Assembly: GCA_035161305.1 (NCBI GenBank) | Contig: JAALXO010000075.1 | Span: 1,588 to 65,587, forward strand | DNA: 64,000 nucleotides | Reading direction: 5' to 3' | DNA from: Candidatus Hestiella acidicharens | GTDB taxonomy: Archaea > Thermoproteota > Thermoprotei_A > Sulfolobales > Acidilobaceae | In this document: positions 3,872-48,488 of the stretch, one piece after another | Layout: every line of letters starts with the position of its first letter | Position numbering within the stretch: the stretch's first letter is position 1 | Made by a program: the position numbers and the translations under genes | Notes under the pieces: model-generated | The model's input: only the letters and a program-made list of their open reading frames with translations | What the model was told of the DNA's origin: nothing | The model's database searches: none

Positions 3872-4900
3872 CTAGGGAGAAACGGTAACCCACGTAACTA
3901 TATCTATCTCATATATTGACATACTTGGACTATATTCAATTACCTTTCTTGGCTTTCCTACTTCAAAGCTATAGGGGCACTTTATAGAACCCCTTATCTT
4001 ATTGAGTATGTTGCTATTCTTGCTCTCTAAAACATAAAGAAATATTGTTGATTTTCCTTTCTCTAATAGGTTGCATGCGCTACTTAAGTAATTGATAGAC
4101 ATTGTAGGGTTGTTCATTATTATTTTATTAAATTTATTTGCAATTATCTTATCTAGGCGTGAAGAATCTGCCCTCATAAATGTTACATCTCCTTTAAGGA
4201 TTTTTTTATTAATATGATAGTTACGCTCAGCCAGATATATTGCATATGGGTTTATATCGACTCCTAATATATTAGCTTTTCTTTTTTTTGCTATGTTTAT
4301 CGAAAACCCTCCAATACCTGTAAACATGTCTAAAACGCTGTCGCCATCATCTATAAGATCTGCTATTCTCATGTGCTCCCCTGCAAGCCTTGGATTGAAG
4401 TAGGCCTTGGCTAGGTCAATATAAAACCTAAGGCCATTTTCTTTATGTATTGTTAACCTCTTATCTTCACCTTCTAGTAATATTAACTCAGGTATCCTGA
4501 ACTCTCCTAAGGTCGCAGTTTTTGCATAAACCGCTTTTATCCTTGGATTCATTTCCATAATTTGTCTAGCAGCTTTTTTAAGTAACCCCATATCTTTTTT
4601 GTAGTTAATTATTGCTATATCACCAATTATGAGGTAACTAGAAATTCCTGGGATTACCTCACTTAACCTCTTAAAGCTATACTTGTATTTCTCGAAGCTA
4701 TCCTTACAGATTTCAAAGGTTACCCCACTCTTTTCTAGTAGCCCCCTTGTAAGCTCAACTTGGGAGACCGCAAAGGCTATTTTGTCCTCAATTCTTTTAG
4801 GCTTTAAACCGCTCCTTAACGCATTTCCATTCTTTAGGATATCTAGTACCTTTTTTGCATCTTTTTTGTTTACGCACACGCAGTTGCTTATAACATCCAA
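3872..4900 (-). CDS. trm5: tRNA methyltransferase, Trm5/Taw22 (Met-10+) family
   Basis: IIGDIAII, HKENGLRFYIDLAKAYFNPRLAGEH, VLDMFTGIGGFSI, DINPYA, IIMNNP motifs. Confidence 0.85.
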   Translation of the reverse strand: MDVISNCVCVNKKDAKKVLDILKNGNALRSGLKPKRIEDKIAFAVSQVELTRGLLEKSGVTFEICKDSFEKYKYSFKRLSEVIPGISSYLIIGDIAIINYKKDMGLLKKAARQIMEMNPRIKAVYAKTATLGEFRIPELILLEGEDKRLTIHKENGLRFYIDLAKAYFNPRLAGEHMRIADLIDDGDSVLDMFTGIGGFSINIAKKRKANILGVDINPYAIYLAERNYHINKKILKGDVTFMRADSSRLDKIIANKFNKIIMNNPTMSINYLSSACNLLEKGKSTIFLYVLESKNSNILNKIRGSIKCPYSFEVGKPRKVIEYSPSMSIYEIDIVTWVTVSP

Positions 4901-4962: not shown

Positions 4963-5279
4963 TGCAGGCCAGGATAGCGGTCCACGGGCCCTTGGCCTGA
5001 GGAAACACCGCCCTCTCGGTGGCGACCGGGCCCTGATGGGCTGGGGCAATACCCCAGGCAACGGTACAGAAACGACACGGCCTCCATCAGATGTTGATGA
5101 TGTGGTAAGGCCTCCTTGGTAACAAGGAGGCAGAAAAGCCACGGAAAATGGTGGAGGATGCGATGAAACGACCGACCCCGGTGGAGCAAGGCTGGGGGTG
5201 ATGAAGAGCCACGTAAACCCCCAAAGGCCGCAGAGTCAAATGCCGCAATACAGAAGGCGGGTTATTATCCTGGCCTGCA
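4963..5279 (+). ncRNA. rnpB: RNase P RNA
   Basis: P1 helix TGCAGGCCAGGATA/TATCCTGGCCTGCA; conserved regions GAGGAAAC..CCGCC, ACAGAAAC, TGAAACG, GAGCAAG, ACAGAAGGCGGGTTAT; GC-rich island in AT-rich DNA. Confidence 0.95.
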
Positions 5280-6853: not shown

Positions 6854-8146
6854 CTAGAGGTTTCTATATGTACTCGACCTAAGGTCAAAATAGGAGGCAC
6901 CTTCTATCTCTACTAGCACTCTTCTACCAATAAGACCTTCATCTCCATCTATAGCTACAGGAAAGTAATTCTGCATCCTGCCTACAACATAGGATTTTTT
7001 GAAACCCCTTGAAGTCACTAAGACTTCCTCTTCCCTACCTATATAGGTCCTGTAAATCTTCTCTGCTTCCTCGCGTATTATTTGGTTTAACATTCCACTC
7101 CTCTTCTTCTTTATAGGCTCTGGCACCTGTTGCATTGAAGCTGACCTTGTCCTAGGCCTTATGCTATACTGGGCTAGATACACCCTTTCAAACTTAAGTT
7201 CCCTGAGTAACCTAGCAGTATTATTAAAAGATTCTTCATCCTCGCCAGGATGACCAACAATTATATCTGTTGCAAAAAGCGAACTGGGGAATTTGGCTTT
7301 AATTTTCCTGTGGAGGTTTTTAAATTCCTCTACAGAATAATTCCTATTCATTACCTTCAAAAGGTTCTCATCGCCCGATTGAACTGGTATATGAAAGAAC
7401 TTAAACACCCTATCATCCCTGTATAGCTCTAGAAGGTTATCTATTATTTCCATTGACCTGTTTGGTGTCATCATACCTATCCTTAATCTGTAATCCCCAT
7501 CGACCCTATCTATTATCATAGAAACAAGTTCATCAAGCCTCGTTTTTGGTACGAGGTCAAGCCCATATGCTGCCGTATCCTGTCCTGTAAGCCTTATTTC
7601 TTTTACACCATTTTTCACAAGCTCTTGAATTGTATTCACTATAAGACGAGGCTTATAAGACCTTAAGGTTCTTCTGGCAAGTTTTGTTATACAAAAGCTA
7701 CAATTATCGAGGCATCCTTCTGCTATCATTATCGTTGCAGTACTATCCATGCTAGGGGGAATAAAAATTTTTTCATTGTCCCTCTCTCCGTTAAGCAGTA
7801 TTACCTTCTTGTTAGACTCAACAACCTCTAGTATTTTTGAAACGTTTTGAGGAGAAATAAGGCTGGCATCTGGTAACGTTCTTTCAACAAGCGAAGGTCT
7901 AGCCTTAACAAGACAACCAGACACAACAATTTTGGATCTCGTTGAGTAACCTTTTATCTCCTTCAACCTTTTAATTATTTTGATCTCTGTATCGAGTCTT
8001 ACGGCGCAAGTATTAACGATAATGATTTCTGCCTCATCTATGTTATTTGTCATCCTGTAGCCGTTAGAATTCAAAAGGTAGATCATAGTATTACTATCGA
8101 AACGGGATAATGGGCAACCATACGTTTCAATATAATATTTCTTCAT
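6854..8146 (-). CDS. mtaB: tRNA t6A37 methylthiotransferase (MiaB-like/MtaB radical SAM)
   Basis: UPF0004 N-terminus (ETYGC, VNTCAVR, SGCL), CLDNCSFC radical-SAM motif, C-terminal TRAM domain. Confidence 0.92.
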   Translation of the reverse strand: MKKYYIETYGCPLSRFDSNTMIYLLNSNGYRMTNNIDEAEIIIVNTCAVRLDTEIKIIKRLKEIKGYSTRSKIVVSGCLVKARPSLVERTLPDASLISPQNVSKILEVVESNKKVILLNGERDNEKIFIPPSMDSTATIMIAEGCLDNCSFCITKLARRTLRSYKPRLIVNTIQELVKNGVKEIRLTGQDTAAYGLDLVPKTRLDELVSMIIDRVDGDYRLRIGMMTPNRSMEIIDNLLELYRDDRVFKFFHIPVQSGDENLLKVMNRNYSVEEFKNLHRKIKAKFPSSLFATDIIVGHPGEDEESFNNTARLLRELKFERVYLAQYSIRPRTRSASMQQVPEPIKKKRSGMLNQIIREEAEKIYRTYIGREEEVLVTSRGFKKSYVVGRMQNYFPVAIDGDEGLIGRRVLVEIEGASYFDLRSSTYRNL

Positions 8147-15677: not shown

Positions 15678-15791
15678 AATATAAATAACTGCTATAAAAA
15701 AATATACTGCTATAAAAATATATAGCCAAGTACTCAAATTAAAACAGGTGAAGGGCTCCAATGCCTTAGGACACAATAAGACGGGCCTAGA

Positions 15792-15866
15792 GGACCCGTA
15801 GCTCAGCCAGGATAGAGCGTCGGCCCTCTAAGCCGAATGTCGGGGGTTCAAATCCCCCCGGGTCCG
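15792..15866 (+). tRNA. tRNA-Arg(UCU), position 33 is C
   Basis: Acceptor GGACCCG/CGGGTCC, anticodon arm TCGGC-CCTCTAA-GCCGA, T-arm GGGGG-TTCAAAT-CCCCC. Confidence 0.93.
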
Positions 15867-15957
15867 CCTACATAAACACCTTGTATCTATGCATGCTAAG
15901 CAATTAAAGACCTATAAGCATGTTACATCAGCATACTCATAACCCTAAAGGTAAGAA

Positions 15958-16432: not shown

Positions 16433-18646
16433 ATGGGAGCCAGGGTAAAGCTGGTATCAGAAATTGAGAAAATAATGACAAATATAGAGCAGGTTAGGAA
16501 CATAGGGGTAGTTGCTCATATCGATCATGGTAAAACTACAACAAGCGACACCCTACTAGCGGGTGCTGGAATAATTTCAGAAAGGGTCGCTGGGGAAGCT
16601 ATGCTATTAGATTATTTGAATGTAGAAAAAGAGAGAGGAGTAACAGTAAAGGCCGCAAACGTAAGCTTGTATCATGAGGTAAATGGGAAGCCGTATGTCA
16701 TCAACCTTATAGATACCCCAGGGCATGTAGATTTTTCTGGTATGGTCACAAGGAGCCTAAGGGTTTTAGATGGAGGTATAATAGTTGTCGACGCGGCTGA
16801 AGGTGTAATGACACAAACTGAGACTGTTCTGAGGCAGGCCCTTGGAGAAAGGGTGAAGCCTATACTTTTCATAAACAAGGTAGATAGGCTTATAAAAGAA
16901 CTGAAATATGGTCCGCAACAGATACAGGAAAGGTTTGTAGAAATAATTAGGGATATAAACAACCTTATTGATATGTATGCTGAGCCACAGTTTAAAAATA
17001 AGTGGAAAATAAACCCAGCCGAGGGAAATGTAGCTTTTGGTAGTGCAAAGGACAAATGGGCCCTTACAGTACCGGATGCCACGAAAAAAGGGATAACTTT
17101 CCAGCAAATAATTGATGCTTATTCATCCGAAAGTAAGGAAAGGATCGTAGAGCTATCAAAAAAAGCCCCGATATGGGAGGCTTTGCTTAACATGGTAGTT
17201 AAGTTCATACCGAACCCGAAGGAGGCGCAGAAATATAGGATTCCAAAGATATGGAAGGGAAGCCTAGACTCGGAGCTTGGAAAAGCTATGATGGAAGCTG
17301 ACCCAAACGGTCCTTTAGTCTTTTACGCAAATGCCATCAAAGTAGAAAAGGCAGGGATAGTAGCTACTGGGAGGGTGTTTTCAGGCATCTTAGAACCTGG
17401 CAAGGAGGTCTATATTGTTTCAGGTGATCGTAAGGGAAGGATACTTCAAGTAAGCCTCTACATGGGTCCCTTTAGAGAGCTAACAAGTAGGATACCTGCT
17501 GGAAACATAGCAGCAATAATGGGAATAGAGGGGATGAGGTCTGGCGAAACGATAGTCGACATTGCATATAAGTCACAAGCTGCCCCATTTGAGCAAATGC
17601 ATTACATAAGCGAACCTGTCGTGACCTCGGCCATAGAACCCTTAAAGCTCCAGGACTTACCTAAGATGATAGACGCCCTGAAGAAGCTAACGTTAGAGGA
17701 TCCTAACTTGGTCATAAAAATAAATGAGGAAACCGGTGAGTACCTCATTTCTGGCATGGGACAATTACACCTTGAAATAGCGATGTGGATGCTTAAAGAG
17801 CTTTATGGCGTAGAGGTCAAGGCATCCCCGCCAATAGTTGTCTATAGAGAGTCTGTAAAGCAGGCTAGCAAGACGTTTGAAGGAAAGAGCCCTAACAAGC
17901 ACAATAGGTTCTACATCAGCGTTGAGCCTCTTAATGAAGAAACCATAAGCTTGGTTCAAAAGGGTTTAGTTAGCGAGGATCAGGATGCGAGGGAAAGGGG
18001 TAGGATCCTTAGAGATAAAGCTGGATGGGATTATGATGAGGCAAGGAGGATTTGGTCTATTGATGAGAACATAAACATGTTTGTTGATATGACTTCTGGA
18101 GTGCAATACTTAAAGGAAGTAAAAGATACAATACTAGGAGGGTTTAGGATAGCTGTAAAGGAAGGACCCCTTGCTGCCGAACCGGTAAGGGGGCTAAAGG
18201 TTGTGTTACATGACGCAGAGATACATGAAGACCCAGTCCACAGGGGTCCTGGGCAAATATATCCTGCGGTAAGAAACGCAATATGGGCATCCATGCTTAC
18301 TTCGAAGCCAACGCTATTAGAGCCAATACAGAAGCTTGACATAAAGGTCCCAATAGATTATCTCAGTCAAGTGACGGCAATAATAAGTAAGAAAAGGGGA
18401 AAGATTCTTGACGTTAGGCAAGCAGAGGTACAGGCATTGGTGACGGCCGAGCTCCCAGTTGCAGAGAGCTTTGACATATCTCAAGAGCTAAGGGGCGCTA
18501 CTGCCGGGAAGGCCTTCTGGGGAACGGAGTTTAGCAGATGGGCCCCAGTTCCAGATTCTCTCCTTGATGACCTGATAAAGAAGATAAGGCAGAGAAAGGG
18601 ATTACCTCCTAGGCCACCAAGGCTTGACGACCTTTTAGGGCCATAA
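16433..18646 (+). CDS. fusA: Translation elongation factor 2
   Basis: [21 protein letters not shown] GTPase motifs; diphthamide loop [12 protein letters not shown]. Confidence 0.98.
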
Positions 18647-46023: not shown

Positions 46024-46067
46024 TTATCATTTAGGTAGAAACATTTTAAAACAATTTTCGATTACTT
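45990..46067 (+). repeat. 27-bp perfect direct repeat (45990-46016, 46041-46067) with 24-bp spacer
   Basis: ACATTTTAAAACAATTTTCGATTACTT twice. Confidence 0.95.
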
Positions 46068-46077
46068 ATTTGGGGGA

Positions 46078-46152
46078 GCCGCGGTAGTATAGCCCGGCCC
46101 AGTATGCGGGCCCTTCGAGCCCGTGACCCGGGTTCAAATCCCGGCCGCGGCA
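46078..46152 (+). tRNA. tRNA-Glu(UUC), position 33 is C
   Basis: Acceptor GCCGCGG/CCGCGGC, anticodon arm CGGGC-CCTTCGA-GCCCG, T-arm CCGGG-TTCAAAT-CCCGG. Confidence 0.93.
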
Positions 46153-48391: not shown

Positions 48392-48488
48392 GCCGCCGTA
48401 GCTCAGACCGGTAGAACCCTGCGTGGGTACCGAAAGCGCTGGCCTTGTAAGCCAGTGGTCGCGGGTTCGAATCCCGCCGGCGGCTCCA
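48392..48488 (+). tRNA. tRNA-Thr(UGU) with 20-nt non-canonical D-arm intron at 22/23 (48415-48434), encoded CCA
   Basis: CTGGC-CTTGTAA-GCCAG; BHB: AGA bulge, CGGU/ACCG helix, AAA bulge, ACCC/GGGU intron stem. Confidence 0.93.

Follow-up and report, generated by a model that had tools for sequence, protein, structure and literature searches.

Uridine at position 33 is found in 97% of known tRNAs (PMC11096365) and is held to be invariant in elongator tRNAs, the listed exceptions being eukaryotic initiator tRNAs with C33 and the Candida tRNA-Ser with G33 (PMC5041475). U33 is usually taken as fixed in elongators, where it is the trigger of Elongator, a determinant of t6A in yeast and E. coli, and a requirement of an archaeal Cm32 methyltransferase. 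Wolff et al. 2020 mention an archaeal exception in a single sentence: the tRNA-Cys(GCA) gene of Sulfolobales has C33, and the corresponding tRNA could not be isolated (PMC7668247). Beyond this remark, no description of C33 in archaeal Arg, Glu or Leu tRNAs was found in the searchable literature.

Departures from the conserved nucleotides of tRNAs are also known from other systems. In Methanopyrus kandleri, editing of C8 to U8 by the enzyme CDAT8 has been demonstrated, and most tRNAs are affected. Phage tRNAs with substitutions in the anticodon loop escape the anticodon nucleases of the host. In eukaryotes, tRNA-Arg(UCU) and tRNA-Glu(UUC) are the classic Elongator substrates. The dependence of individual enzymes on position 33 has been studied directly. 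The U33C substitution abolishes both acetyl-CoA hydrolysis by Elongator and the formation of mcm5U (PMC11096365), and a U33C substrate is not modified at all by TrmJ, the Cm32 methyltransferase of Sulfolobus acidocaldarius (PMC4105751). For t6A37 synthesis, C33 acts as an anti-determinant with yeast KEOPS and with E. coli TsaBCDE, whereas human and nematode KEOPS, whose initiator tRNA has C33, are not blocked by it; the metazoan initiator tRNA combines C33 with t6A in vivo (PMC8887486). The gamma-toxin of K. lactis cleaves a U33C substrate as well as the wild type (PMC2275089).

Here we describe a tRNA-Arg(UCU) gene with C33 found in a 64,000-nt stretch of archaeal DNA, further referred to as the window. 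It resembles the M. kandleri case in having a genomic C at a nearly invariant U in more than one tRNA of a single lineage; however, here a minority of tRNAs has the C and no candidate enzyme turned up among the window ORFs scanned, whereas in M. kandleri most tRNAs are involved, the enzyme is known and the editing has been demonstrated. As in the phage tRNAs that escape nucleases, conserved positions of the anticodon loop are changed, but those tRNAs are extra copies on mobile genomes and this gene is chromosomal and apparently the sole copy. The cytoplasmic initiator tRNA-Met of animals and plants shares with it a natural C33 and the U36-A37-A38 sequence, with C33 lying beside the site of t6A37, and the t6A machinery has co-evolved to accept this nucleotide (PMC8887486). 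The initiator, though, enters the P site directly, while tRNA-Arg(UCU) is an elongator and must pass A-site decoding. Moreover, it is not an initiator of the eukaryotic type: its anticodon is UCU rather than CAU, and its anticodon stem UCGGC/GCCGA does not have the run of three G-C pairs at the loop end. Candida tRNA-Ser(CAG) is likewise an elongator working without U33 (PMC5041475), but it is eukaryotic, has G33 rather than C33 and is tied to a codon reassignment. The Sulfolobales tRNA-Cys(GCA) is also an elongator of thermoacidophilic Thermoprotei with a genomic C33 conserved across a clade (PMC7668247). It differs in amino acid (Cys), in having G34 and a G27-U43 pair, in belonging to a different order, and in being a single tRNA species; here, tRNA-Arg(UCU), tRNA-Arg(CCU), tRNA-Leu(CAG) and tRNA-Glu(UUC) are affected, and the arginine case recurs in other archaeal phyla. 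Hence the tRNAs of Hestiella and Caldisphaera join a rare and already noticed class, that of archaeal elongator tRNAs with C33, and are not a new kind of system. They provide a natural experiment on C33 in hot-spring and vent archaea, including the cultured C. lagunensis with a finished genome. Such an experiment could tell if decoding proceeds normally in the absence of U33, if the archaeal Elp3, KEOPS and TrmJ obey the same U33 rule, and if there is a new editing step.

The tRNA-Arg(UCU) gene and its genomic context

The gene forms a full cloverleaf without an intron, and CCA is not encoded (Table 1). Its match to the Rfam tRNA model is full-length and far above the cut-off of 29 bits, and no non-canonical pairs are flagged in it. 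It has a 7-bp acceptor stem, a D arm with G18G19, a 5-bp anticodon stem, a 7-nt anticodon loop and a T arm with a GTTCRAnnC loop, as an elongator tRNA-Arg should, and deviates in the C at position 33. Since all features other than position 33 are in place, the gene is kept in the tRNA family and is a member of it despite C33. The loop had been read as C-C-U-C-U-A-A in the first-pass annotation; the sequence and the Rfam alignment agree with that reading.

Table 1. Positions of the tRNA genes with C33 and of other features of the window discussed in the text
Feature	Position	Strand	Evidence
tRNA-Arg(UCU) gene	15792..15866	+	ARAGORN; Rfam RF00005 67.1 bits, model positions 1-71
tRNA-Arg(UCU) anticodon stem, TCGGC paired with GCCGA	15820..15824 with 15832..15836	+	direct reading
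tRNA-Arg(UCU) C32	15825	+	
tRNA-Arg(UCU) position 33, C in place of the near-universal U	15826	+	sequence; exact metagenome contigs X1, X3; C. lagunensis CP003378.1
tRNA-Arg(UCU) anticodon TCT (U34-C35-U36)	15827..15829	+	ARAGORN, Rfam; codon count
tRNA-Arg(UCU) A37-A38	15830..15831	+	
5' flank of tRNA-Arg(UCU), about 17 nt	15775..15791	+	
tRNA-Glu(UUC) gene, second tRNA with C33	46078..46152	+	ARAGORN; Rfam 56.7 bits
tRNA-Glu(UUC) position 33, C	46113	+	sequence; 29.9-kb X3 contig, exact match
tRNA-Thr(UGU) gene with D-loop insertion	48392..48485	+	
MtaB/CDKAL1-type methylthiotransferase gene	6854..8146	-	UPF0004, radical SAM and TRAM domains
Trm5/Taw22-like methyltransferase gene	3872..4900	-	
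RNase P RNA gene	4966..5276	+	178.6 bits

The tRNA decodes AGA and possibly AGG. In those ORFs of the window that are 150 aa or longer, AGA makes up 26% and AGG 67% of the arginine codons, while the CGN codons account for 6.5% combined. AGA and AGG together thus represent 93% of the arginine codons, and therefore the codon family served by tRNA-Arg(UCU) is heavily used and the gene is not a spare copy.

The window DNA is approximately 87-92% identical to WALX01000133.1 from Candidatus Hestiella sp. S016_56_esom (L051, L208), with a value of about 89% for the comparison with S016_56 as such. Hestiella is a genus of Acidilobaceae (Acidilobales) neighbouring Caldisphaera, and by sequence similarity the window is assigned to a Hestiella species. 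All annotated neighbours in the window are chromosomal housekeeping genes, among them those for EF-2, ProRS, PCMT, prefoldin, the Nuo operon, TBP, PCNA, primase, Trm5/Taw22, an MtaB-type methylthiotransferase and an RsmB-like methyltransferase. The window contains no repeat of the tRNA 3' half. Neither a mobile location nor redundancy with a chromosomal copy, by which tRNAs of mobile elements and phages are recognised, is seen for this gene. An origin from a mobile element was set aside because of the housekeeping neighbours, the lack of a 3'-half repeat in the window and the lack of a second copy in the contigs of metagenome run X10 described below.

Verification of C33 and copy number

Two metagenome runs contain short contigs covering position 33. 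In run X1, from a hydrothermal vent, a 76-nt contig is an exact match to 15792-15867, and in run X3 a 66-nt contig is an exact match to 15792-15857; both span position 33, and their depth is of the same order as that of the flanking contigs. A 29.9-kb contig of X3 matches 46060-46144, which includes position 33 of tRNA-Glu, without a difference.

Copy number was assessed in run X10, which contains a relative (organism B) with an upstream flank like that of C. lagunensis. No twin gene with U33 was found there at a likeness of at least 85% in 1.58 Mb of contigs read. One contig only covers position 33 of tRNA-Arg, and the Logan contigs of this run contain no other Arg(UCU)-like copy. The first-pass annotation had named two observations that would overturn the anomaly, T at position 33 in the reads and another, U33-bearing copy of the gene with this one unexpressed; the contigs of X1 and X3 carry C, and the X10 contigs contain no U33 copy at that likeness. 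The tRNA-Arg(UCU) gene is real, conserved, syntenic and apparently single-copy, and serves the dominant arginine codon family.

C33 in Hestiella, Caldisphaera and their relatives

The tRNA-Arg(UCU) gene is identical in Candidatus Hestiella S016_56 (L051), and the genes of Caldisphaera and Acidilobaceae are 93-98% identical to it. In the complete genome of the cultured C. lagunensis DSM 15908 (CP003378.1, L085 10446-10523) the gene has C33 and adjoins the same CBS-domain gene that lies upstream of it in the window, the two CBS-domain proteins being 62% identical. The same synteny together with C33 was found in Caldisphaera MAGs and hot-spring metagenome contigs (L016, L084, L112, L121, L201). 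The same tRNA body with C33 occurs in Acidilobaceae UBA158 and in a MAG labelled Desulfurococcales (L005, L066). In a Sulfolobales MAG the CBS-domain gene is present with no tRNA nearby, so the synteny is lost. The nearest body with U33 among the listed matches of the open metagenome scan described below (L127, L188) has the same acceptor and T stems and a different anticodon stem.

Other tRNAs of the family have C33 as well. In Caldisphaera MAGs and UBA158 (L012, L046, L048) and in metagenome organism A, tRNA-Arg(CCU) has the loop CCCCUAA and equals the UCU gene except at position 34. In Caldisphaera sp. JBMFUF010000001.1 (L211), a tRNA-Leu(CAG) at 17739-17823 (Rfam, 47.6 bits) has the loop CCCAGAA, which combines C33, C34 and A37. 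In the window itself, the anticodon loop of tRNA-Glu(UUC) is C C U U C G A.

The seven tRNAs and one RNase P RNA found by Rfam in the window allow a comparison within one genome. C33 occurs in two of the seven tRNAs, and the other five have U33, among them Asn(GUU), Met(CAU, with an intron), Thr(UGU, with a D-loop intron) and Cys(GCA, with an intron) according to the Rfam alignments. The first-pass annotation had stated the same for these four tRNAs and had seen the substitution of tRNA-Glu, and both statements proved correct. With a background probability of 0.03, the chance of two C33 among seven tRNAs is approximately 0.02. Outside the window, U33 was found in all 68 unique tRNAs other than Arg(UCU) and Arg(CCU) encountered incidentally in about 1.5 Mb of archaeal loci, the window's own Glu being the sole exception. 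Given these 68 tRNAs, the 97% frequency of U33 among known tRNAs and the small chance probability, the C33 of the window is beyond coincidence.

The history of the substitution differs between the two tRNAs of the window. Three Hestiella assemblies (L208-L210) have the identical tRNA-Glu(UUC) gene with C33. Its syntenic counterparts in two species of Caldisphaera (L211, L212) have the loop CTTTCGA, hence T33, and are otherwise 100% identical, and T is also found at position 33 of tRNA-Glu(UUC) in metagenome organisms A and B. Because the Caldisphaera genes differ at position 33 alone and organisms A and B also have T, C33 of tRNA-Glu is, as judged from this alignment, a recent and Hestiella-specific change.

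In total, at least four tRNA species of the Hestiella/Caldisphaera family, of roughly a dozen seen, have C33: Arg(UCU), Arg(CCU), Leu(CAG) and Glu(UUC). That at least four species in one family carry it suggests that C33 characterises the lineage and not just a single tRNA. The connection between C33 and U34 with its xm5(s2)U modification, proposed in the first-pass annotation, is weakened: Arg(CCU) and Leu(CAG) have C33 together with C34, and Thr(UGU) and the Glu(UUC) of Caldisphaera keep U33. The pattern of one Nitrososphaerales genome, given in the next section, does fit such a connection. Another of the proposed options, a tolerated lineage-specific variant of the loop, gained support, because the syntenic genes of Hestiella through C. 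lagunensis all keep C33, the tRNA family serves the dominant arginine codons, and the sole copy in X10 has C33.

C33 in arginine tRNAs of other prokaryotes

We searched one genome per species (185,579 species) for the pattern C32-C33-Y34-C35-U36-A37-A38 in an Arg-like frame; the scan covered Arg(UCU) and Arg(CCU) only. At least 84 stretches were found, about 62 of them archaeal. The number 84 is a lower bound, because C. lagunensis CP003378.1 is not listed although its tRNA-Arg(UCU) matches the pattern exactly. The archaeal matches belong to the Acidilobales group, to roughly 40 MAGs of Nitrososphaeria, Thaumarchaeota and Conexivisphaerales, to Bathyarchaeia, and to the DPANN phyla Woese-, Pace- and Nanoarchaeota, the latter with CCU. 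The matches in Nitrososphaeria, Thaumarchaeota and Conexivisphaerales represent several different tRNA bodies, mostly with UCU. The recurrence of C33 across Thermoproteota, Nitrososphaeria, Bathyarchaeia and DPANN suggests that Arg(UCU) and Arg(CCU) are unusually tolerant of C33 or gain from it.

The Nitrososphaerales MAG L060 (CAYFFS010000005.1) has four arginine tRNAs within 8 kb, and of these UCU alone has C33, whereas CCU, CCG and UCG have U33. This is opposite to Caldisphaera, where both UCU and CCU have C33. A scan of metagenomes with positions 33 and 34 left open yielded at least 119 loci, with at least 82 U33-CCU, at least 27 U33-UCU and at least 10 C33-UCU genes. Among the matches listed, the C33 genes had two tRNA bodies only, the Acidilobales type and the Nitrososphaerales type, and T at position 33 was seen in neither of these bodies.

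The remaining matches of the genome scan are scattered among bacteria, some of them in tRNA arrays. In a contig of an uncultured Treponema sp. (L059), C33 is combined with U34 in Thr(UGU), Arg(UCU), Glu(UUC) and Gly(UCC), which lie beside tRNAs with U33. The cyanobacterial contigs L038 and L065 have tRNA arrays with several C33 tRNAs, including Arg(UCU) and Glu(CUC) in L038. These three look like mobile or phage-type tRNA arrays.

Probable inheritance of C33 and its possible consequences for decoding and modification

We consider it probable, on balance, that the gene encodes a working tRNA-Arg(UCU) of Hestiella with a fixed C33 going back to the ancestor shared by Hestiella and Caldisphaera, and that the lineage tolerates this nucleotide. 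C33 most likely stays C in the mature tRNA; here we rely on parsimony and on the RNA contigs of a distant homologue from Nitrososphaeria described below. Position 33 would be permissive for C throughout the family, and fresh T-to-C changes there would continue to be fixed, because different members carry C33 in Arg(UCU), Arg(CCU), Leu(CAG) and Glu(UUC). The tRNA would decode with a C33 anticodon turn, as the metazoan and plant initiator tRNAs do. The Elp3/Elongator (cm5U34), KEOPS (t6A37) and TrmJ (Cm32) enzymes of the lineage would either accept C33 or skip these tRNAs, and in the latter case the tRNAs would have an altered modification pattern. By analogy with the enzymes studied elsewhere, C33 probably alters the handling of these tRNAs by the U33-dependent Elp3, KEOPS and TrmJ. 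No match to the Elp3 radical-SAM motif was found within the retrieved loci.

It is possible, though unlikely, that C33 has been selected as an anti-determinant that keeps Elp3, KEOPS and TrmJ off these tRNAs and in this way tunes the decoding of AGA/AGG and, in Hestiella, of GAA/GAG. The blocking effect of U33C on Elongator, on t6A synthesis in yeast and E. coli and on S. acidocaldarius TrmJ, the status of Arg(UCU) and Glu(UUC) as Elongator substrates, the restriction of C33 to the UCU gene in L060, and the recurrence of C33 in Arg(UCU) and Arg(CCU) with different tRNA bodies across several archaeal phyla are all consistent with such selection. However, Arg(CCU) and Leu(CAG) combine C33 with C34, on which Elp3 has no bearing, and Leu(CAG) and Glu are not t6A substrates. 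Since the C34 members are outside the range of Elp3 and neither Leu(CAG) nor Glu belongs to that of t6A synthesis, no single enzyme explains the whole set of C33 tRNAs. The recurrence itself comes from a genome scan that took in Arg(UCU) and Arg(CCU) only, so that specificity for arginine is not established by it.

RNA evidence and possible editing

In X27, the one RNA run found, no contig matches the window's tRNA across the anticodon; the Arg tRNAs found there belong to other organisms. RNA contigs could be analysed for a widespread Nitrososphaeria homologue of tRNA-Arg(UCU) (L003 3593-3669). In four metatranscriptomes it has C33 in unbroken contigs with zero differences, which run from the 5' leader through the anticodon loop, and no contig bearing T was found in these metatranscriptomes at the 1% reporting threshold. 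A frequent U33 form would have given a T contig or split contigs, so an abundant edited form of this tRNA was probably absent. As the contigs include the leader, they may represent precursors or DNA carry-over, and standard libraries capture mature tRNA poorly; these data are mildly against editing of C33.

Conversion of C33 by an undescribed lineage-specific enzyme, which would deaminate it to U or otherwise change it after transcription and make the genomic T-to-C changes neutral, has a low probability in our estimate. That one family has C33 in several tRNAs unrelated to each other, including the very recent change in Glu, would follow from it, because a C33-to-U deaminase would permit such accumulation. 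All C33 tRNAs of the family also share C32-C33, tRNA-Arg(UCU) has a genomic C at a conserved U position as an edited tRNA should, and the CDAT8 system is an archaeal precedent of C-to-U tRNA editing. On the other hand, no tRNA cytidine deaminase was found in the window among the ORFs scanned (about 50 of about 72), the one deaminase there being a dCTP deaminase of nucleotide metabolism. Further, no reversal to T was seen in the Acidilobales-type or Nitrososphaerales-type bodies among the matches listed, the four metatranscriptomes show C only in the Nitrososphaeria homologue, and the mature metazoan initiator tRNA, which has t6A in vivo, is described as containing C33, so that editing is not required in that case (PMC8887486). 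It is accordingly improbable that Caldisphaeraceae, and perhaps other C33 archaea, convert C33 to U or another base in the mature tRNA. If they did, this would be the second archaeal system of C-to-U tRNA editing and would act inside the anticodon loop, and changes of U33 to C would be neutral and accumulate in one tRNA after another.

Nuclease evasion and artefacts as unlikely alternatives

Protection of the tRNA by C33 from an anticodon-loop nuclease that recognises U33, be it a toxin, a virus or the weapon of a competitor, seems very unlikely. We know of no U33-recognising anticodon nuclease in these archaea. Such protection is known for the phage tRNAs mentioned above, and some of the bacterial genes matched by the scan stand in arrays that contain more than one C33 tRNA (L059, L038, L065). 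By contrast, the gene considered here is chromosomal, apparently single-copy and surrounded by housekeeping genes, the sister genera differ in which tRNAs are affected, and the K. lactis gamma-toxin is indifferent to U33C (PMC2275089).

An error of assembly or sequencing, or a decaying pseudogene, has nothing but the rarity of C33 in its favour and can practically be dismissed given the exact matches in independent metagenome runs, the same C in the finished genome of the cultured C. lagunensis, the high score of the tRNA, the kept synteny and the heavy use of its codon family.

Flanking sequences and other RNA-related genes of the window

The 5' flank directly upstream of tRNA-Arg, ataagacgggcctaga, stays similar out to Caldisphaera, the C. 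lagunensis version being aacaaggcgggccatgt. The CGGGCC within it could pair with the 5' acceptor strand GGACCCG, and the flank may be a leader or a promoter element. On the 3' side, similarity to the other Hestiella genome (15867 onward in the window, 6826 onward in L051) stops approximately 20 nt past the tRNA, and the EF-2 gene that follows tRNA-Arg in the window does not follow it in L051. Since the similarity ends there and EF-2 is absent in L051, tRNA-Arg marks a synteny break between the two Hestiella species.

An integrated element had been suspected at tRNA-Glu, since contigs stop there. This was ruled out, because the 3' half of the tRNA matches other tRNAs alone elsewhere in the window, and because the surrounding housekeeping genes keep their synteny in both Hestiella and Caldisphaera.

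The MtaB/CDKAL1-type methylthiotransferase encoded in the window would, as predicted from its domains, form ms2t6A37 in tRNAs that read ANN codons, Arg(UCU) among them. The genes for the Trm5/Taw22-like methyltransferase and for RNase P RNA lie close by (Table 1). The D-loop insertion of tRNA-Thr(UGU) is 27 nt long, at a non-canonical intron position, and is kept in Hestiella (L208, L209) and Caldisphaera (L212). With this insertion, ARAGORN miscalls the tRNA as Thr(GGU), and in L212 as Pro(GGG).
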